A stretch of 62,202 nucleotides of DNA, counting the filler, from Ionaspis alba (lineage: Eukaryota), in NCBI GenBank assembly GCA_964255285.1. It is 2 parts of 2 records of this genome, joined end to end, with 100 filler letters (N's around TTAATTAATTAA, not from the genome) between each part and the next. Parts side by side here need not be neighbours in the genome. Positions count along the whole stretch, not along the records: positions 1 to 31,056 come from CAXUUL010000112.1; 1 more part is not named here. The stretch is one strand, 5' to 3'. The notes under the pieces are model-generated. The model ran no database searches. It was given only the letters and a program-made list of their open reading frames with translations, and had not been told where the DNA came from. Positions 391 through 17,956 of this stretch are shown here, one piece after another (position 1 is the stretch's first letter; each line of letters opens with the position of its first letter). Made by a program: the position numbers and the translations under genes.

Positions 391-3075
391 ATGTTTCGCA
401 ACAGGTGAGTCCATCAAGCCTGCCAGAGCCTATCCTCCCTGTAGTAATTGCGGTTCCTTGCGCCGTTTCCGTTCACATGCCCGAGTCGTTCCACACCAGT
501 GCAACTTGGCTAACGCGCAATCGAGCAGAAGGAATTCGCAGAAACCTTCGGACGAGCTGTACGCCTCGTTCAAGCAGACTTTCCCTGGAGTCGGTCCAGG
601 GACGGCATCATCATCGGCGGTGGCGACTGAAAGCACGACTTCGTTAAGCGATGCTCTCACCGACCCAATCATGCACAATAGGTACGACTTTCATAGTCCC
701 CCAGAGCAGGACAAATATTTGACGCGAGACAATCGTCGAGATACCCCCAAGAGCGCGTTGTCAAAACGATCATCGCGAAACTTGCGAGACTAACGTTCTG
801 AATGAACAGACAATTCGGAGAATTGAAGGATCACGACATCACGCCCCGAGGATCGCATGAGCAGCCATGGCGATTCACACCCTCGCTCCTCGATCCCAAC
901 TCCTTTTCTTTCTCCGCCTTCGCCAACCAACCACCCGGCTGTTACACACCGACACCAGGCGGCATGAATACGCTCTACCACAGTCAAGCTGGCGATCTGC
1001 ACACACCCAACATGGGATTCCACCTCGGTACGCCACTATCGATGCCTATGTCGGACGGCTTGGTACACGCCGCACCGCCCTTTGATATGCATGGATTTCA
1101 AGTCCAAAGTTTCGTGCCACAGCCATTTCAGCAGCAGGCACCGTTCCAACAGCAGCAGTCTTTCGCTCCCAGTTCTTTCGTTCATCAGGATTCAGGGTAC
1201 GAAGCCATGGAAGGATCACCAGAGGATGACCTGGATGTCAATCCGGAACATCTAGTCGAGCAGCACACTCTACCCATCCAATCGGTTGGCCTTGGCGGGA
1301 GGATGGCAGCACCGCCGGTCCCCTCCCATGAGAAGTTCGTCTATTCCCTCTGATTCCATTCGCACCGGAGACTGACCATTCCCCCAAGATTCCGTTACAC
1401 TGTTACCTTGAATGCTCCGACGGCCATGATCCGCCACGCTGAAGAAATCCCGGTGACCTACCTTAACAAAGGTCAGGCATATTCCATGACGATCGTCGAC
1501 AGCGTTCCGTTGGCACCGTCCCTGATGCCTGTTAAGTATCGCACGGTCGTTCGTATCTCCTTCGAGGATGAACAACAGCGTCTGCGTCCATCGGCTTGTT
1601 GGCAACTATGGAAGGAAGGTCGAGGGCTTGCTGAAGCACATCAGCGCGCTGGTAAGCTTCAGGCCGTCGAATATGTAGACCCTCATCCTGGAGGAGGAGA
1701 TGACAATACCCGGCGACCACGAGTAGACCTGGAGAACGCTTCGTTCGATAGCTTCTCGGTAATTTGGAGCCCCATGGCTGGCACCAACGTTGCCGATTGT
1801 TCCGTAGCTGTTCGTTTCAATTTCCTCTCGACGGACTTCAGTCACTCCAAAGGTGTCAAAGGGATTCCTGTTCGGCTGTGTGCGAAGACGGAACTCATTT
1901 CGTCCGGCACACCGGATTCGCCACCGGTACCGGAGCCCGAAGTTTGCTACTGCAAAGTCAAGCTTTTCAGAGATCACGGTGCAGAACGCAAGCTCTCCAA
2001 CGACGTTGCTCACGTCAAAAAGACAATCGAGAAAGTCAAACAGCAGATCTCACAAGTCGAATCCGGCATCAAGGACTTTGGAAAGAGGAAGAGGGGTGGG
2101 TCAATTGCGGGAAAAGCTGGGGGCGAACGACCAGGGAAGGTTCAGAAGCACAAGAGAACGTGGTCGGTATCTTCGCACAGCTCCACCGGGCGACCTGCGG
2201 TGGAAGAAGATTTGCACCAGAAGCTGGCCACCGTACAGGATATGTTCACGTCTACCCGCCCGGTCAGCGTGCTCTATCTGAAGGGCTTAGAGCAGGACGA
2301 TCCCGACCTCTTCCCTGTAGCATTGCCTGGGGAACAGCCAGATCCCACGAAGAACCAGGACCTCAGTCGAAGTGAGTCTTGGGAGCGAAGGCCGAGCGCT
2401 GAAATCACTCCGGCAAGCTCTTGTCTTGTTTCGCCCGTCCCAAGTTCGCAATCAATTCCTTCCCAACCTCGCTCGAAGGATCGACCCACCTTCCAGCAGC
2501 CAATTCCTTTCAATCCCACCCTACCGCTCGTCAATCCCGATTGGACAACCTCAACCTCCCTTCAAGGAGGAGATGTTTCGGCCGGTACGGTCCCTCGAGC
2601 CATCAAGATCCAAAAGATTGGTGATGGCAACGACCTTCCCGCCTGGATCGAAGCTCTTGGTGTCGATCCGTCCTATCAACCTCCACCCGAGCGGCTGGTG
2701 AAGCCTGTCGCTTGCTTCTACGTTCTCATCAAAGTCGGCGGAAAGGATTTGGATGGCGATTATTATCGAGCGGTTTATCTCATGGAAAAGACTCTCCACA
2801 ATCTCATCCGGAGCATTACGGCCAAATGCGAAGTCGACCCGTCCAATGTCCAACGAACGCTACGCATCAACGATAGAGGTGTCAAGATCATCGTCGATGA
2901 CGAGGTCGTTGGCGAATTTTCCGAAGGGCAAGACATGAGGGTGGAATTCGATGAAATTGACGTCTCGAGCGCTGTCAACCAAGATCGCGAATCGTTCGTC
3001 ATGGAGCATGATGCGCCACATCTCACTGCCGTGCCCTTCGATCGCAAGGTTCTAGAGATGAAGCTCTTCTTCTAG
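391..3075 (+). CDS. Grainyhead/CP2-family transcription factor (4 exons: 391-404, 529-681, 810-1334, 1389-3075)
   Basis: Spliced N-terminus MFRNRRNSQKPSDE. CP2 DNA-binding motifs PVTYLNKGQAY, VRFNFLSTDFSHSKGVKGIPVRL and CKVKLFRDHGAERK. GT-AG introns with CTAAC/CTGAC branch sites keep the frame. Confidence 0.93.
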
Positions 3076-5479
3076 ATCACGTGACTTGCTACTTGGTTGT
3101 TTTTTTATTTTTTCCTTTTTCCCTCCCTCCGTTTAGGTGTTTACGAGATACCCACTTTTGCAGGTCGATATATTCCAGACCTCTAGGTCGCTCAAGACAG
3201 CCTCGATTGAAGTCTTTGGCAAGAGAGGCGGCCGGGACAAATCTATTCTTCATTGGGTTGGTGGCTTGTCTTTTGCACATTGCGTTGAGTTTCGCTCGAG
3301 GGGTGGACTGCTAAAGACGGCTACAACCCTCGACCCCGAAATCGGCTTTCGGACCAACGAGTAGTCTTCATTTGGGGTGGGGAATCGGGCGAGCTAGTCT
3401 CTAATCTTACTTAACCTGGGTCACGATTGACTTGGGAGATGATATACGGGTCTCCGAGCAACGACATAATTTGCAAACTTTTCTTCTTTTACGGTCACGA
3501 CGCACACGATACCACTATACCCGATCCCGGACATATGCACCATTTTTTCGAATTTTACATCGCTTGGAACGGAACTCCTTGATTAACTCACTTTTGCCGT
3601 ATACGGTGTTATCCTTTTCCTTCCTGTTCCTCGGTGTTCCCTGTGATTCTGTTTGCGAGATACCCAGGGGTCAAGAAGTGGCTTGTGTTCCATTTCTTCC
3701 TCCAGCTCGACGTGGCACCATACAAATAAAGATGGGCGGTGGGGTCACTGATTCACGAGTACTGTCATTGCAAATATCGTATAGTCTCTCCCCTCACGGC
3801 GCATCGCTTGAATACGTTGAATCGGTGAATCATCATTCCCCGCCATCCACAACCACTTTCCCCGATCATTACCACCCCCCTTCCCCCAGTACTTCACACC
3901 ACGTACCACAAATCCCAAGAAGAAGAACCGATGCCTCCACTCCCCACCCCGGTGTGACCTCACGTCATTAGCAGCACCTGACCTCAACTGCTTTCCCCTG
4001 CAGCATTTCTGGTCCCTTACATCCAAGCTGCATCCACTCCGTTCGTCCAGGATCATCCCTTCTCGCTTTGCTCGCTTCGGCACCCCAAACCCGTTCTGAC
4101 CCCGCTCTCCAGCCACCCCTAGTCATGGCACTTCTGTTTCGCCTTGCGCTCGAGAGGCTTGTTCTCTGCCGCGAGCCGCCACTTTGGATCTGACTCCAAT
4201 AAAGAACCATCCTTTCTCCCCGCTTTTCTCCCTCCTCCCTCTCTCCGGGCTACCCTCTGACGACCCTGAAGATTGCAAAAAGACCTGATTTCCAATGCGA
4301 AACAGCCACTGGTAGCGGCAGGCAATGGACAGTCCAGTGCCAACCATTTAAGCTGTGGCTCTGCTTCCACCGTTCGCATCGCCCAATTTGCATTTGGGCA
4401 CCATCGTCATCGTTACGTTCGACGGTTATCGCTAGAGGTGCCCCTTACAAGTGGCGGCTTCCGAGCAGGCAAGAACGACAAGGTTTGAGCGATCGGCAGC
4501 CCGACTCGGTCGTGTGCATGTCGTGGAATTGTGGCTGTGCACCGCCACTGCCGCTTTCCCACCTGTCCCGCAAGCCCAATCAAATACTCTTCTGGCTAAC
4601 TCGAACAACTAGGAAAGATTGGTTCTGGACCTGGCAAGGAAAAGTTGCGCGATTCCATGCTCAGCCTTAGGATCTGCTGATAGGACGTGCGTCAGGATGA
4701 TGATGATGATGATGAGCTCACTGGGGTGGCGGATAAGAATAAATAGCAAGTGGCGCATGAGGCACGCGAGAGGAACCAGTCGGTCGATCATCGGTTGTTT
4801 GGGGATGAGGGATACTTTTGGAACATTTTGAAAGAGATTGGCAGAATCACCAAAGGATCGACAGCACTGATGAATTAATCAGATTTAGATATGCTTGGAT
4901 AAATGGCTTGGCTATCTCTGACATGGAAGAATGCTGCCTTGGTCCTTCGAGTTGCCAAATAGGGAACCTCAAGATCGACTGATCTGTTTCAGATCAATAT
5001 GCCTGTGTCCTGTAGGAAGATCAGAAGTGCATGGTAATTCTGATGCTGTGGTCTAATAAAGTACTCGAATAGGAACTGTAAATAGTACATGGTCGGGCTG
5101 TGCGAAGGGAATATCTCGCTATATGTTGGGGATTGTCAGCTGATTTGAATGGGAACCAGTGGGTCAGGTCACCGCAATGGCCCACTATTTCAGACGTCAA
5201 TATGGGGTGTACAGCAGCGTACTTGGAGTGATAAAAAAGCGGTGACTCTATGCGAGTATAGATATGTTACACTGTTCACACTGATCAGATAGTCTTGATA
5301 TAAATACAATAAAACTGTTCCCTGGGATTTGAATATCAGAATGTTTACAAGCTAGACCAATAGATAAGAGGTAATGTTCCATATGCTCCAAAACACATGA
5401 ACAATTTTCTGCCCAATTCTGGAGACCCGCGAGCGATAATAAAGTGTAGTAAGAATTTTGCACAATATTTGAAAATCAA

Positions 5480-5627
5480 GTCTCGTTGGCGCAATGGTTA
5501 GAATTTTCTTTCACAATAAGCGTAATACCAACAATGACTGATGCTTTTCACTCAGGTAGCGCGCCAGACTTCTATAAAATTCAGGTCTGAAATCTGGAGG
5601 CTGTGGGTTCGAGTCCCACACGAGATG
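5480..5627 (+). tRNA. tRNA-Arg-TCT: tRNA-Arg(UCU) with a 59-nt D-loop insertion (5497-5555) and a canonical 17-nt intron (5575-5591)
   Basis: Acceptor stem GTCTCGT/ACGAGAT, D-stem GCGC/GCGC, anticodon stem CCAGA/TCTGG with loop CT-TCT-A|A, T-arm GTGGG-TTCGAGT-CCCAC, discriminator G. A-box TGGCGCAATGG and B-box GGTTCGAGTCC are present. Confidence 0.92.
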
Positions 5628-6460
5628 GATGAAATTTTGCTATTCATTTTGTTCGATAAGAATATAGAATGTGTTCAAATCATTTTGACAGTTGATCGAA
5701 GGTTGTTGAACGAATGGAATGGTGACTCAAACCCTATTGAACGTGTCGAATTCCAAAGAATCAGCCGTTCTGTCTCATGGCTTAGAAAATTGTAGAAGAA
5801 TATCTAGAGCATTCATGAACATCAATAATAATGATTGATGCTGTGATAAGAACATGGAGCAGAAGTTGTCGATAACAACGTCTTGGTGTCTCCTAGTCAC
5901 CTTACTACCCACAATCGCCTCCAATGTTTGACGATAAGTCGTGGCTTTCGATCGAGATCAGATGGGAAATGATCGGCATGTGTTTCCAACGTGTTAGTTA
6001 TAAGGGGATTGGATCAACGAACAGTGGGAAGAGACGTTGGTCAGTATCGATGGCAAGGATGGGTGCATCTAAGGGGCAAGCGAATTTTTGCTCATTCTCC
6101 CACGCATAATGTGAACCTATAATTGCTTCAAACGTTTCTATCTTCAGCGATGTGAGGATGGTAGTAGACCTACCCAATCTAGGCCGAAGGTATGCTAATA
6201 TACGAAGGAGAGATCTGATTAGATTCTGGAAGGGCAATAGGCGGTGAAGTTAGGTTGTCGTTTTTATATAGCTGGGAGCGATTTGTTTCTGTATGATCAT
6301 TATATACGGTATCATAACGCGTGTATGTATCTATAGAATCAGGCCTTCCCCGGACCACCTATCCAGCTCTCCCTCTCCATCATCATTACAACATTACGTT
6401 CGATGCCATTATATATACCGAATCGAGAGAACGCCGGATTTGTGCAGTGTGAACATCACA

Positions 6461-9021
6461 TCATCGGGTAATAATCAAGGCGAGTCCTTCCACAAAGGTG
6501 CCGCAGATGCCCGAAATGCCTCCAACACTATAACCCGTGGGAGGCGTCAATGTGTGTCTATTCCTCCAGTTAGTTGCGTTGAAGTAGATACATCGTCACC
6601 GCACAATGTAGTGACATACGTGGAACCAGCAAACTCGTCACCGAAGAATCTCGAACGTCTGCCGGTACTCGTCCAAACTTGGAGACCGTTGATCACGTTG
6701 TTGGCTCGGACGAACAGACCTAATAGGATCTCACCGTTCCGTGTGTCTATGTATGAAAAGGTAAGTATGGATCAACTCTAGCCGTGACAGTGATTCTGAA
6801 GACTGACCGAACCCAAAAGTGCCTACGGTATCTGGTCCTCCCGAACTTCTCCGCCCAAATAACTGGCTTGTCGAATTCTCGAAAAAGAACTCCATGCCAG
6901 TCACTGCAGGCTCATAGTACACCTTGACGGTTAGTAGAACGGTCTTCAGATCCACGGCACTGCGAAGTATCATGTCCTCCGGATCGTTTCCCGCGGCAAC
7001 AGACGTACCGATTTGATTTCCACGGAAGCCTATACGTCCTTTCTCCATTTTGATTACACCCTTGGACAACGACTGTCTTGAGTCGGAGACGGTGCAGCGC
7101 TCGCCCGCGATAGAGTATATCTCGAGACGAAGAGGCTTCTTCCTGTGTTCCTGAGGCAACCACTTCCGTAGTTCACCTTCGCTCAACAGCAACTCCCTTG
7201 GTGGACCATCCGAGGTATCGGGACCAGGCCTCCAGTACTCGATCCATCCCTGGCAATACCCGCATCCATGAGGGTGGAGCTCGATCAACGCAATACCCGA
7301 AACGGCGGATACGAAAAATCGCTCTTTGTCGATGGGCCAAACGTGGGCCATCCCCTCCTCGGTACAGTGTCGCCGCTCGAAAGGCATTCTGAAGCACGGA
7401 TGGAAGTTGAATCGAAGAGCATCCAACCGGTGGAGCTTGATCTCATCCGACATTGTTACGAGTCTAGAGCGCTCTCCTGTGCGTACTGAGGAGGCGTCGT
7501 GGATGAGGAATGTGCGGTTGAGATGGCAGTACTGCTGGGGAAGACAGCCAAAAAGACGTGCGATTTCCTGCAGATGAGCACCCATACTCGCACTAGCGGC
7601 CTCCCAGTTTGACGGGGATTCGTTGCGGTAGTTGGCGACAAAATTAGTGTCAGTCCTCGTGCAGTCAGTAAATGCCGAAACCACCTCTTCGATGCAACTG
7701 GGGTAGCACTGCAAATTCTGAGAGCCGAAGATCGCCAGGTGAAGACCGCCGCGTGTACCGTTATCGGCAGCATAGGCAGTGATGGCATTAGATTTCTTGT
7801 CCCAATGAGTATCAAGAAAGAGCGCCGATACATGCTGAGTCTGTCCGGGAAGTGCTTTGAGATGGTGGCTGATTGTGTCTGCCGCAATACCAAAGAGTTC
7901 TCCTCCTGTTGGGTGGACGGTCCCCTCCTGCTGCGATCTGCTCATTTCCCTCAGTTCAGCGACAGTCCTCTCGACGCGCAAAACATGCACTTTGGCCTCG
8001 CTTCTCATTTGCATTCGACCGTGTTGCCTGTCGCGAACCGTAATCGTCCCTGGCTGCCAATCTTCTTCGTATCGAAAACACCTTCTGTACAGTCCGTGGC
8101 GATGCATCTGCTCTGCAATAAAAGCTTGCCAAAGGTAAGCGGCCATGCGATACTTCTGTATTGCAACGTCCAAGCCATTGCCCTCGCGCGCAATCCTTTC
8201 CGGGACAGCATCGAAAGTTCCCGGCGAATCTTTGCCAAGGAGTAGAACGAGGTGCAGTGGCGGGACATCAGTCATCGGAATGAAGGTGGTCTTCACCGTC
8301 AATCGGCGATAGTCAGGAGGGCAACCACGTGGAATCTTGCCCGAGTGGAAGTCCAGGTGGACCTCATTCCATCCAGGGGATAAGAGAACCAATGCCTTGA
8401 ATTGAGATTCGACGACCGGCCATTGGACCGGTGGGAAGTTGTCGAGGTAGTGTGTAACAGTTACTGTCCCGTTCAGTAGGTGCTGCTTCGCATCTCCAAT
8501 CTCTCCACGAACAAGGAGCATGTTTTGGTGAACCTGGGCAGCGTTTGAGCTTGACACGTCCCAGTGCTGTACACAGAGAGCTAGTTTCTTACCATTCTAG
8601 GAAGCTGATGGCCAGGGATCTGAGGTGCATAAGGGAGTACGGAGGGCGCCGCAGAGGTCGACTTCGTGGTCGCAGTCACAGAAGGCGCCTGTTCACCACC
8701 TTCGTCAGACCCATCATAAATATGCAGAGATTGAACAACATCCTCGGACTTGCTTACCACCATGCTGTATCTATTGCTGTCTGGAATTGTTGGAGGTTCG
8801 TGTGGTTGAGGTTGTGGCACGCTTTCGGTCGTTTCAGGTGGTGGAAGGTTGAGGTTCAGCAAAGACGGTTGAATGGAAGATGCAGGTGTCGAGGCATCGT
8901 ATGGAGATTCAAGGGTCGGCGAAGATTTTGTTGTGGGCACAGAGCCGTCAGAGTCGTGAGGTGAAGTCTTGGAGTCAATGCTGACTCTAGAAAACCTCCT
9001 GATGTTCTTGAGGAAGGGCAT
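6461..9021 (-). CDS. YIL108W-like putative zinc metallopeptidase with C-terminal jacalin-like lectin domain; catalytic motif degenerate
   Basis: ORFs 8581-9021 and 6731-8557 join across an intron. Family motifs PPLHLVLLLGKDSPGTFDAVPER, YRMAAYLWQAFIAEQM and LHRLDALRFNFHPCFR. Final exon ends ...GLALIITR* at 6461. Confidence 0.85.
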
Positions 9022-13326: not shown

Positions 13327-15666
13327 ATGGCGCCCAAGCACCTTACTGCTGCCATTGGAGCAGCCTGCGTTGCCCTTTTCATCACAATTCAGATGATCTC
13401 AACCTCTGGTCTTCCTCAATTCAGTTTCTTGCGTTTGTATTATGTTGGTAACCCAAGAGTTATTTCTATTCCTCAGATCCCCATCAATTCCATCCTCGAA
13501 GATGTGTCTCGCACGGGTAAAGGTACTCCGTACCTCCTCGGGGTTGGCAAAGCAGACATTACCGGGTATGCCGCCTTGATCTCTAACGAACCGCTACGAT
13601 GACTAACAGGGAAGCCCAGTCCGGTGGTGGAAATCAACATGATGGGCTACGCCGACCCCAAACAAGTTGGTTCCGGATTGCGGCAAAGACTCTATTCAAG
13701 GGCTTTCATCGTGGCTGATCCTTCGATACCGGAAGACCGATTCGTGTATCTGGTGCTGGATACTCAGTCCGGGGACACTGCCGTACGGTACGGGATCTTG
13801 GAGGGATTGCAGGCTTTGGGACCGGAGTATGCCACTGTATACGGACAGAAAAACGTTGCCGTTACCGGAACACACTCGCATTCTGGGCCGGGAGCCTGGC
13901 TCAACTACCTTCTGCCTCAAATCACCAGCAAAGGATTCGATAAGCAGAGCTACCAAGCCATTGTAGATGGCACAATATTGTCGGTTAAGAGAGCGCATGA
14001 GAGTATAGCATTAGGGTATCTGAGCTTTGGTTCAATTGAGGTCCAAGATGCCAACATCAACCGAAGCCCCTATGCATACTCGGCTAACCCTGAGGAGGAG
14101 AGGGGAGGATACAAGGACGACGTTGATAAGACGATGACGATGCTCAAGTTCACTAGAGCTGGAGATGGTCTGAGCATGGGCATGTTGACCTGGTTCCCTG
14201 TGCATGGGACGTCCATGCTCGGTAACAACACCCTCATATCAGGCGACAATAAAGGCGTTGCCGCCTACTTATTCGAAAAAAGCGTCAAAGGTCTGGAAGA
14301 TTGTGACGTCGACTTTGTAGCCGGCTTCTCGCAATCCAACGTCGGAGACACGTCGCCGAATATCCTCGGAGCGTGGTGTGAAGACGAGTCAGGCATGCCA
14401 TGCAACTTCGAAGACAGCACCTGCGGAGGTCGCAACGAGCCCTGTCACGGCCGTGGTCCCTTTTTTCGCGAAAAGGACGAAGGCGCCGCAAGCTGCTACG
14501 AAATCGGACGAAGACAATTCTCCGCTGCACGAACCCTCTTCAACTCCCTCGATGACTCCACGGGCATCCCAATCCTCGGCCCTACCGTTCGTGCCCTTCA
14601 TACCTTCCAGGACTTTTCCTCCTTCTCCTTCCACCTTCCCAACGGCACAGCTGCGTCCACCTGCCCTGCCGCGCTGGGCTACTCCTTCGCAGCCGGCACC
14701 TCCGACGGCCCCGGAGCCTTTGACTTCAAGCAGAACTCCAGCGGTGATCCCACTGTGAACCCTCTCTGGGGGGCGGTGCGAAAATTTCTGCACGAACCGA
14801 GCGAAGAACAAAAGCTTTGTCATGCACCGAAACCGATCCTCCTCGATGTCGGCGAGATCCAAAAGCCCTACCTTTGGACGCCTAACATAGTTGACGTACA
14901 GCTCTTCCGTGTCGGGCAGCTAGTCATTATCGTTTCACCTGGAGAGGCCACTACCATGGCCGGGCGACGCTGGAAAGCATCCCTCTCCAACGCTGCCACT
15001 GCCTCCTCTCTCGTTTCGCCGGCTGCGCCATCACCACTTGTCGTTCTTGGTGGTCCAGCAAATTCCTACGCCCATTACATAGCCACCGAGGAAGAATATT
15101 GCATCCAGCGCTACGAAGGGGCCTCCACGCTCTACGGACCACATACACTAGCTGCTTACATCAACCTCACCGTGTCATACCTCCCCTATCTCGCTGACCA
15201 CATCCCCTCTACCCCATTGGCTTCCGGACCGAGTCCTCCCAACAACATGAACGCGTCTCTCTCCTTCATCTCCCCCGTAATTTTTGATGCTGCGCCGCTC
15301 TTTCGCTCTTTCGGCGATGTGGTCGTCGATACACCTTCTGCTGTTGCTCCCGGTCAGACAGTTACGGTCACCTTCGTTGGTGCTAATCCGCGTAACAATC
15401 TTCGGTCGGGGGACTCATATACGGCGGTAGAGAAGCAAGCAGGTAGAATTTGGCACAGGGTATTGGATGACAGCGACTGGGAGGTGTCTATGCGTTGGCG
15501 GAGGACTAGTGAAGTACTGGGTACCAGTGAAGTGGACGTTGTATGGCATATTCCACAAGATGTGGAAACAGGGATATATCGGTTGCGCTATCTTGGAGAG
15601 GCGAGAAGGATTACAGGGAGGGTAGTTGGGTTTGAAGGTGTCAGTGCGAAATTTGTCGTTAAGTAG
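13327..15666 (+). CDS. Neutral/alkaline non-lysosomal ceramidase
   Basis: Signal anchor, then YLLGVGKADITG|PVVEINMMGYA, GTHSHSGP, WFPVHGTS, GDTSPN and QRYEGASTLYGP; one intron near 13566-13614. Confidence 0.95.
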
Positions 15667-16528: not shown

Positions 16529-17956
16529 CTACTGACTCAACGGATCCACACCCTCAGACCCACTTCCTGCTCGAACCGCTGCTCCTTTCTTACTTGGATC
16601 GTTCTGCCTCATCAACTCGTTCACTGGTCCCAACAGTCTTTGAAAGCCTTCCTTCCCTAGCATGGCAACCTTGACCTCCTCCAAGGAAACAACGCTCGCA
16701 GCCCTCGGCTTGTCATCCAGCAGTGCCAATTCTCCGAAATAATCTCCTTTTTTATAAGTCGTAAGCGCCTTGTCTCCTGTCTCCTTCTTGTAGGCAGCTG
16801 CCCTGCCTGATTCAAGTAGATAGAACGCTTCGCCGCGATCGCCCTCGCGGATGATGGTGCTGCCAGCCGGAAATTTCTGTGTCTCGAGGGAGTCGGCAAT
16901 CTTCGAGTGCTGGTAGGGCTCCAACGATGCGAGAAGTGGTACTTCGTTGAGGAAACTCTCGTACATACGGCGACGGGCAAAGGCTGAGTCCATGAGTATG
17001 CGACGGAAGGTGACACGATCAAGGGCCCAGAGTAGAGAACCTGGCTCGGTCGAGATGACAGTTGCGGCCCGGGGGGCGTTGTACATGAGGGCGAGCTCGC
17101 CGAAGGAGCCACCGGGGCCAATGTCGGCCACCTTTCCCCCAATACCGCCAGGGCCCGGCTGAACGGTGCCGGTCTTGTTGATGTGGATATCGAAGTGGCC
17201 CTTTTCGACAATGTAGAAGTAGTCGCCGGCGTCGCCTTGGGTGATGATCTTAATGCCCTTGGCCGGGATGGGCTTCTCTACCAGAGCGCCAAGAACCTGG
17301 GAGGTCTGCTCGTCGTCGAGGTGGCTGAAGAGAAAATTGTTGGCCACGGCGACTTTGAGGCGGGCAAGCTGGTCTGTGGTCTTGGCATGGTAGGGTGGCT
17401 TCCAGTTGTCGTCCATGCTGGACTGCGGATTCATACTTTCCGCGGAGACGGATGTGCGACGGCCCATGGCGTAGTTTGATGGAAAGCCTTCACCAGAACC
17501 CCCGACTGGCTTGAAGGACGATGGTGGTCCTCCTCCTCCTCCACTTGTCCCTGCTGCTGCTGTTGAAGGTGAAAAGGAGCTGCCAAAGTCTCCGTCGTTG
17601 GCAAAGGGGGAGCTGCCGGAGGAATTGCGGTGGGAGAATGGGGAGTTTTGAAACGAGGGATTCGTAGGGGACATGGTCGATTCCACCTCGTCTTCCTCTC
17701 GCAGTTGCTGCATACCTCCACCTGCTGCGGGGCTACGTTGATGCGTGCCACCACCGAAAGGGTTGCCGCCCGGGAAATTCGACTCTGCCATTCTGATCCC
17801 ACCAGACTTGGTGGAGAGGAGATACTCTGCGCGCTGTGACTCAAGACGACGGTTGAAGAAGTTGGCGCAGAATTGAAGTACGTCTTGAGGTTGGGCTTTC
17901 AGGATCTCACGATTGAGGGTATTTAGCTCGTTGGTGTAGGTTGGTGGTAGGGACAT
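16529..17956 (-). CDS. pkaR: cAMP-dependent protein kinase regulatory subunit
   Basis: N-terminal D/D domain, RRTSVSAES inhibitor site, and two cNMP-binding domains (FGELALMYNAPRAATV; FGELALLDDKPRAASV). Intronless ORF. Confidence 0.97.
   Translation of the reverse strand: MSLPPTYTNELNTLNREILKAQPQDVLQFCANFFNRRLESQRAEYLLSTKSGGIRMAESNFPGGNPFGGGTHQRSPAAGGGMQQLREEDEVESTMSPTNPSFQNSPFSHRNSSGSSPFANDGDFGSSFSPSTAAAGTSGGGGGPPSSFKPVGGSGEGFPSNYAMGRRTSVSAESMNPQSSMDDNWKPPYHAKTTDQLARLKVAVANNFLFSHLDDEQTSQVLGALVEKPIPAKGIKIITQGDAGDYFYIVEKGHFDIHINKTGTVQPGPGGIGGKVADIGPGGSFGELALMYNAPRAATVISTEPGSLLWALDRVTFRRILMDSAFARRRMYESFLNEVPLLASLEPYQHSKIADSLETQKFPAGSTIIREGDRGEAFYLLESGRAAAYKKETGDKALTTYKKGDYFGELALLDDKPRAASVVSLEEVKVAMLGKEGFQRLLGPVNELMRQNDPSKKGAAVRAGSGSEGVDPLSQ

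Follow-up and report, generated by a model that had tools for sequence, protein, structure and literature searches.

Positions 5480–5627, on the plus strand of the stretch of Ionaspis alba DNA analysed here (assembly GCA_964255285.1; 62,202 nucleotides (nt) in all, hereafter the window), hold a complete transfer RNA (tRNA) gene, tRNA-Arg(UCU), which is divided into three exons by two introns: one of the canonical tRNA kind in the anticodon loop, and one of spliceosomal (GT-AG) type in the D-loop. The gene is defined by sequence reading, by script location and by covariation of the cloverleaf over five genes. Exon 1 (5480–5496, tRNA positions 1–18) comprises the acceptor strand GTCTCGT, the TG of U8 and G9, the D-stem strand GCGC and the D-loop segment AATG. 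Exon 2 (5556–5574, positions 19–37) continues with GTA, the second D-stem strand GCGC, G26, the anticodon-stem strand CCAGA and the loop CTTCTA with the anticodon TCT, while exon 3 (5592–5627, positions 38–73) consists of A38, TCTGG, the variable loop AGGCT, the T-arm, the acceptor strand ACGAGAT and the discriminator base G5627. The acceptor strand 5480–5486 pairs with 5620–5626 at all seven positions, and the D-stem is formed by the GCGC segments at 5489–5492 and 5559–5562. In the anticodon arm, the stem CCAGA/TCTGG encloses CTTCTA, a 17-nt intron and then A, and the T-arm reads GTGGG TTCGAGT CCCAC. The 17-nt intron (5575–5591), located by script, occupies the canonical position 37/38, and its borders can be slid by one A. 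The D-loop intron (5497–5555) is 59 nt long, lies between G18 and G19, and has equivalents in four other fungal genes.

Both internal promoter regions are present in the unspliced gene. The A box comprises tRNA positions 8–19 according to the section of PMC3978253 that describes it. In the window, the A-box region TGGCGCAATGG (5487–5497) extends one base into the D-loop intron, its last G being intron base 1, and the B-box region GGTTCGAGTCC (5606–5616) lies in exon 3; the latter was part of the scan pattern described below, and its conservation among the loci is hence forced by the search. An earlier, sequence-only reading had proposed a tRNA-Arg(UCU) gene with a D-loop insert and a canonical tRNA intron, had stated that excision of 5497–5555 joins G18 to G19 and yields the D-loop AATGGTA, and had observed that the A box survives in the unspliced gene. 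All three statements hold: the script recovers the gene at 5480–5627, the first G of the insert completes the A box, and ARAGORN draws an intact D-arm once the insert is excised, though it misreads the anticodon arm.

The D-loop insert carries a complete set of splice signals, which agrees in every detail with the sequence-only description of a 59-nt segment with a GTTAGA start, a CTGAT motif, a pyrimidine tract and a CAG end. The 5' splice site GTTAGA is located at 5497–5502, the branch-site motif CTGAT at 5538–5542, with the putative branch adenosine A5541 14 nt before the intron end, and the 3' splice site CAG at 5553–5555, all on the plus strand; the stretch between CTGAT and the terminal CAG is pyrimidine-rich. 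The trinucleotide GGT is repeated at both insert borders, so that these can be slid by up to three bases, and GT...AG appears in only one of the registers. The splice-signal pattern of the insert exceeds chance: among 1,242,950 window segments of 50–59 nt on both strands, the fraction with GT...AG and CTRAY 8–20 nt from the end is 1.85e-4, and it falls to 1.2e-5 when A4, G5 and a terminal YAG are also required, both values including the real messenger RNA (mRNA) introns of the window. Candidate mRNA introns, obtained by joining open reading frames (ORFs) in the window, are 47–66 nt long with a branch site 9–15 nt from the end, and several contain CTGAT. The insert fits their size and branch distance, although the ORF-joining search is noisy (78 candidates with many alternative donors per acceptor, not validated by transcripts or homology) and was used for the size range only.

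The split gene in other fungi

A metagenome collection was scanned once with a pattern consisting of the A-box region, a gap of 40–70 nt, TAGCGC, a gap of 20–50 nt and the B-box region. GT, AG, a branch site and the anticodon were not demanded by the pattern, and of the stems only the D-stem was. Eight loci were obtained, and four of these (L001, L002, L006 and L007) are tRNA-Arg(UCU) genes carrying both introns, with a 37/38 intron of 15–19 nt and a D-loop insert of 50–53 nt at the same site as in the window; together with the window copy, the D-loop inserts range from 50 to 59 nt. The splice signals are kept in all five genes. The 5' ends (window first) are GTTAGA, GTGAGA, GTAAGG, GTAAGT and GTAAGC, which means that G1, T2, A4 and G5 are common to all (GTNAG), while +3 is a purine, A or G, in the four loci and T in the window. 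For comparison, the fungal 5' splice site consensus is GTRAGT-like. The branch motifs, all of the form CTRAY, are CTGAT, CTAAT, CTAAC, CTAAC and CTAAC (window first), located 14, 11, 11, 12 and 10 nt before the intron end, and every insert ends in YAG. The interiors show an identity of 0.41–0.59, against shuffled means of 0.46–0.58. The check suggested in the sequence-only reading, that the splice signals should be conserved while the intron interior diverges, is thereby borne out.

The inserts occupy two registers that are one base apart. In the window, L001 and L007 the insert lies between G18 and G19 (AATG/GT..AG/GTAGC), and in L002 and L006 between G19 and U20 (AATGG/GT..AG/TAGC). GT and AG shift together between the two registers, and splicing would yield the D-loop AATGGTA in each of the five genes. 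This joint shift fits the GT-AG rule and would not be predicted for a cut that is set by the geometry of the tRNA. A slide by one base may have been passable via a viable intermediate, namely a tRNA whose D-loop is longer by one G.

Although the search pattern did not specify the anticodon, the anticodon loop is CTTCTA, followed by A, in each of the five genes. The acceptor stems are all different, and the anticodon-stem strands CCAGA, TTAGA, CAAGA, CGAGA and TCAGA (window first) each have a matching partner strand. Comparison of the five loci by blastn and tblastx, with about 1 kb on each side of the gene, detected no similarity outside the exons and no synteny. The differing acceptor and anticodon stems and the unrelated flanks indicate that the four loci come from different organisms; their G+C content is 43–50%. 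The gene adjoining L006 is closest to succinyl-CoA:3-ketoacid CoA-transferases of Hyaloscypha, Cadophora and other Helotiales (60–71% identity), and due to this resemblance L006 probably derives from the Leotiomycetes, a class other than that of the window (see below). L002 is Pezizomycotina-like, its best named matches being scattered over Colletotrichum, Fusarium and Corynespora, and the flanks of about 1 kb around L001 and L007 yielded no usable ORF. Following these assignments, the D-loop intron is conserved across at least two classes of ascomycetes.

The exons around the two introns are under strong constraint. In the alignment of the five genes, folded as a split cloverleaf, every cell pairs (105 of 105), and compensatory changes affecting both partners are seen in 10 of 21 stem pairs, among them the seven of the acceptor stem. 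The search pattern prescribed the D-stem and most of the T-arm, which are uninformative in this respect, but left the acceptor and anticodon stems and the first pair of the T-stem free to vary. None of 500 shuffles attains the observed pairing and covariation values, and sliding the 3' partner by one to three columns lowers the pairing to 30–64% of cells. The window gene itself has 21 of 21 stem pairs, an intact anticodon loop and both boxes intact, and it is one of three among the five genes that have a G1-U72 pair. Covariation thus indicates that the exons behave as those of a living tRNA. An insertion-inactivated pseudogene, as an explanation for the family, is excluded because the freely varying stems co-vary, and also by the occupation of the insert site in four other organisms.

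The same pattern found a single match (L009) in bacterial and archaeal genomes totalling 596 billion bases, which was rejected as an ordinary bacterial tRNA following a chance match, and no match in a viral collection. The four remaining metagenome loci likewise do not contain split genes, and none of the five-gene counts includes them: L003 and L004 are ordinary tRNA genes after a chance match, and in L005 and L008 neighbouring tRNA genes jointly meet the pattern. Two of these loci contain densely packed tRNA genes. Three uninterrupted tRNA-Arg genes (TCG, TCT, ACG) are arranged head to tail within 230 bases on the minus strand of L005 (864–1090), spaced by 2–5 bases. The plus-strand cluster of L008 (814–1290) includes Pro(TGG), Ile(TAT) and Thr(AGT) as called by ARAGORN, and two more tRNA-like stretches that ARAGORN does not call, one of which has an uninterrupted Arg(TCT)-like anticodon arm and an 8-nt D-loop (AATGGATA).

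Genomic setting and detection

The window has a G+C content of about 50% and a fungal gene content, with a CP2 transcription factor, a PF12044 peptidase, a neutral ceramidase, a protein kinase A (PKA) regulatory subunit and a Tht1-like nuclear-fusion protein. The PKA regulatory subunit shows 72–76% identity to proteins of Xylographa, Ptychographa, Lambiella and Icmadophila. The top named protein matches all belong to lichen-forming Lecanoromycetes, which assigns the window to a lichen-forming ascomycete of this class. The genes flanking tRNA-Arg(UCU) are everyday fungal genes, and the tRNA lies inside a segment of about 3.6 kb (3076–6730) without a long ORF. The segment is preceded by the CP2/grainyhead-type transcription factor (1354–3072, plus strand) and followed by the PF12044 peptidase (6734–8596, minus strand); the neutral ceramidase (13624–15663, plus strand) and the PKA regulatory subunit (16532–17956, minus strand) are located further downstream. 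ARAGORN, in default and in intron-allowing mode, detected no second tRNA within the 62-kb window.

The DNA of the split tRNA gene is sound and does not result from an assembly slip. In one public sequencing run, a possible source of the window, a single contig with a word depth of 118 spans the entire tRNA gene stretch, and identical pieces are present in a second run of the same study at a depth of about 3. Both runs (contigs, of unstated kind) contain only the unspliced genomic form of 5250–5850, and no joints. The second run also includes a contig of 2386 nt at a depth of 35, which has only a 32-nt T-arm part (5588–5619) in common with the window, with two differences, and diverges on both sides. 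It probably represents a tRNA gene from a different organism that is more abundant in the sample.

Standard tRNA finders largely miss genes of this architecture, as the sequence-only reading had predicted. By default, ARAGORN finds none of the five genes and no tRNA in the window. When introns are allowed, it recovers the correct ends 5480–5627 and assigns a false Val(cac) with a 57-nt intron. The Rfam model RF00005 detects one of the five genes at its gathering score (L006, 46.8 bits) and nothing in the window, where a sensitive search reaches only 5557–5619 with 22 bits, below the gathering score of 29. L006, the sole gene caught in this way, is found despite a T5 run in its D-loop intron (L006:1011–1060, plus strand). 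In the part of the tRNAscan-SE 2.0 paper that concerns eukaryotes, tRNA genes are limited to one intron. The tRNA sets of lichen fungi and other Pezizomycotina may therefore wrongly seem to be devoid of tRNA-Arg(UCU), or list it as a pseudogene.

Maturation and alternative explanations

The four additional genes, the kept signals and the exon covariation support the proposal of a spliceosomal-type D-loop intron beside a canonical tRNA intron. It is probable that the insert 5497–5555 is a genuine spliceosomal (GT-AG, U2-type) intron, that the nuclear tRNA-Arg(UCU) gene of this lichen ascomycete is functional, and that the gene gives rise to an RNA polymerase III (Pol III) transcript which matures by splicing in two steps. 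Removal of the D-loop insert by splicing is what we infer from its signals.

The gene would be transcribed by Pol III from the internal A and B boxes. The intron starts directly after the A box, and either its first G or the preceding G completes the box, which would leave the promoter intact in the DNA. This appears to be the only site in the 5' half of the gene where an insert neither disrupts the A box nor alters its spacing from the transcription start. In the precursor, the D-stem should be able to close around the intron, while the corner formed by the D-loop and T-loop should not, as G18 and G19 are either separated or placed beside the splice site. The spliceosome would remove the D-loop intron first, in the nucleus, and only then could the mature D-arm and the D-loop/T-loop corner form, which the tRNA endonuclease needs to measure its cut sites. 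This order is proposed because the endonuclease is placed with the help of Sen54, which recognizes the D-arm and the mature domain; contacts of Sen54 with the D-arm, which position the enzyme, are described in the pertinent passages of PMC4090602 and PMC3978253. The 17-nt intron at 37/38 would subsequently be removed by the tRNA endonuclease and tRNA ligase.

Because tRNA-Arg(UCU) is interrupted at the same site in at least four further Pezizomycotina-like fungi, the intron would not be a recent accident of one genome but old, and derived from one gain or a few. In some lineages, it may since have slid by one base with the mature tRNA unchanged. A more far-reaching proposal, for and against which the balance is about even, states that in several classes of filamentous ascomycetes the tRNA-Arg(UCU) family has long possessed a fixed spliceosomal intron, that AGA decoding in these fungi depends on the spliceosome, that two splicing machines act in a fixed order, and that annotation has missed an isoacceptor family. 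As to the source of the insert, a search for a repeat or mobile-element (introner-like) origin found no second insert copy in the 62-kb window, the best chance match being 11 nt long.

T-runs, which may act as Pol III terminators, are found both inside and behind the gene. The window insert contains T4 runs at 5504–5507 and 5545–5548, and the sole candidate terminators close downstream, identified by script, are two further T4 runs at 5635–5638 and 5647–5650 (plus strand). The corresponding downstream runs in L001, L002, L006 and L007 are T6, T6, T5 then T7, and T4. The sequence-only reading had used the shortness of the insert's T-runs as an argument that they do not terminate transcription. 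Their length of four is correct, but the argument is weakened because the downstream T-runs of the gene are no longer than those of the insert. The first downstream T-run is only 4 long in two of the five genes (window and L007); if these runs are real terminators, Pol III stops at T4, and the intronic T4 runs of the window need explaining. Upstream, an AT-rich TATA-like element is seen by eye at 5436–5443 (plus strand), about 40 nt before the gene, where it may have a role in transcription. In the 60 bases upstream of each of the five genes (5420–5479 in the window), such a stretch is visible about 20–55 nt before the gene, again by eye and with no statistic.

Several observations weigh against a spliceosomal intron in a Pol III transcript of a working gene. 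The window copy has the weakest signals of the five, with T at +3, A at +6 and CTGAT instead of CTAAC. The T4 runs in its intron equal its first downstream runs, and the T5 in the intron of L006 equals the first downstream T5 of that gene; if such runs stop Pol III in these fungi, some transcripts would end inside the intron. The first exon is short, with 17–18 nt plus a leader, and Pol III transcripts lack the cap that aids recruitment of the spliceosome. Finally, the comparison comprises five genes only, in which the A-box region, the 3' D-stem strand and the B-box region were preset by the search pattern.

Some of these points would be accommodated if the same intron were removed by the spliceosome from an RNA polymerase II (Pol II) precursor, initiated at an upstream TATA-like start or by read-through, from which RNase P and RNase Z release the tRNA. 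A precursor of this kind would explain both how the spliceosome is recruited and why intronic T4–T5 runs, equal to the first downstream run in two of the five genes, are tolerated. The AT-rich stretches upstream of all five genes are in line with it, and the tRNA-Sec of Trypanosoma brucei was reported in 2010 to be transcribed by Pol II (PMC2943599). The A-box and B-box regions are nevertheless kept in all five genes, though they were demanded by the search pattern, and each gene is followed within about 6–35 nt by a T4–T7 run, as fits Pol III. In some fungi and plants, Pol III genes, too, commonly have a TATA-like element upstream. Moreover, fungal U6 genes demonstrate that Pol III transcripts can be spliced (PMC5855946, in its treatment of U6). 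A Pol II origin is accordingly considered unlikely. Still less probable is a window copy that is a decaying or poorly spliced member of a working intron-bearing family, close to a pseudogene, with other copies supplying tRNA-Arg(UCU). The weak splice signals (GTTAGA, CTGAT), the downstream T-runs of only four and the isolated position of the gene, with no other tRNA found in 62 kb, would agree with decay. Against this stand the unbroken set of 21 stem pairs, the anticodon loop and the two boxes, as well as the presence of G1, T2, A4, G5, the branch motif and YAG. The G1-U72 pair, which might look like decay, recurs in other members of the family, and CTGAT is also found in several of the candidate mRNA introns that were obtained by ORF joining.

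A different enzymology is implied if the insert is cut out by the tRNA endonuclease, or another protein enzyme, at a bulge-helix-bulge or similar fold, as in archaea, Cyanidioschyzon merolae and nucleomorphs. D-loop tRNA introns of this type do exist in a eukaryote (PMC3978253, in the passage on such introns), and the endonuclease is needed by this gene in any case, to excise the 37/38 intron. However, a strict test, which asked for a 4-base-pair central helix with flanking helices, found no such fold in any register of the five genes. The relaxed test gave matches in two of the five, at differing offsets, and shuffled introns matched in 92–236 of 500 trials. Both tests used a custom script, run with no positive control, that sought two 3-nt bulges around a 4-base-pair helix. 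Excision at such a fold also leaves the kept GT, A4, G5, CTRAY and YAG, and the register-linked shift of GT and AG, unexplained. This mode of removal, which the sequence-only reading had set against its own proposal, was rejected, no fold being conserved across the five genes, and only a very small residual probability is assigned to it. Removal of the D-loop intron by the spliceosome from a Pol III transcript remains the preferred explanation.

Relation to known introns

Spliceosomal introns in non-coding RNA genes are known, and a tRNA host, in which the intron stands beside an ordinary tRNA intron, would be the first case of its kind. Introns with canonical signals, and otherwise not conserved, have been described in the U6 small nuclear RNA (snRNA) genes of many fungi, and additionally in U1, U2, U5 and ribosomal RNA (rRNA) genes, in the relevant section of PMC5855946, which cites Tani and Ohshima 1989/1991 and Canzler et al. 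2016 for the U6 introns. The list of non-coding hosts given there (U6, U2, U5, U1 and rRNA) does not include tRNA. Searches of the full-text literature, with most subscription journals outside their reach, yielded no report of a spliceosomal intron in a tRNA gene, and passages of PMC8450103, PMC3879985 and PMC12513839 likewise report none. Eukaryotic tRNA introns are placed between N37 and N38, and their removal is assigned to the tRNA endonuclease, in the corresponding section of a 2023 review (PMC10275265). A 2025 paper (PMC12530127), in the part that treats nuclear introns, describes spliceosomal introns as characteristic of mRNAs and further Pol II transcripts, and treats the three types of nuclear intron as not related to one another. 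Neither the restriction of tRNA introns to N37/N38 nor that of spliceosomal introns to Pol II transcripts would hold if a tRNA gene carries a conserved GT-AG intron.

If the interpretation is true, tRNA-Arg(UCU) would be the first tRNA with a spliceosomal intron, and tRNAs would be the second class of Pol III transcripts, after U6, to serve as a natural spliceosome substrate. The gene would provide a natural case for a spliceosome that acts on a short, uncapped and highly structured Pol III transcript, for the ordering of two splicing systems on one RNA, and for intron gain in non-coding RNAs outside the spliceosome.

Within the gene, the second intron (5575–5591) and its counterparts of 15–19 nt in the four relatives are of the same kind as the canonical 37/38 tRNA introns, while the D-loop intron departs from the N37/N38 rule in both position and type. 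Non-canonical tRNA introns with a bulge-helix-bulge, including some at D-loop sites, occur in Crenarchaeota, in other archaea and in nuclear genes of Cyanidioschyzon merolae, as summarized in a section of PMC3978253. They resemble the D-loop intron described here in their site, in the presence of more than one intron per tRNA gene and in being missed by standard finders. They differ in that they are defined by their fold and cut by the endonuclease, whereas the conserved features here are GT, the branch site and AG, with no conserved fold.

A second likeness is found among the ascomycetes themselves. Spliceosomal introns were reportedly described in ascomycete rRNA genes by Bhattacharya et al. 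in 2000; the hosts of such introns are mostly lichen-forming fungi. As with the tRNA intron, these are spliceosomal-type introns in a stable RNA gene that is not made by Pol II, and they occur in the same broad fungal group, to which the window belongs as a member of the Lecanoromycetes. In contrast, their host is the rDNA, transcribed by RNA polymerase I, and not a tRNA of 73 nt.

The precedent for a Pol III transcript that is processed by the spliceosome is provided by the U6 snRNA genes of Schizosaccharomyces pombe and many other fungi, where, as in tRNA-Arg(UCU), a small RNA gene of the Pol III type contains a short intron of which only the splice signals are conserved. Intron gain in U6 by reverse splicing is usually explained by the position of this RNA within the spliceosome's catalytic centre, to which a tRNA has no such proximity. 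Unlike U6, tRNA-Arg(UCU) would combine a spliceosomal and an endonuclease-type intron in one gene, so that two unrelated splicing systems would act on a single RNA.

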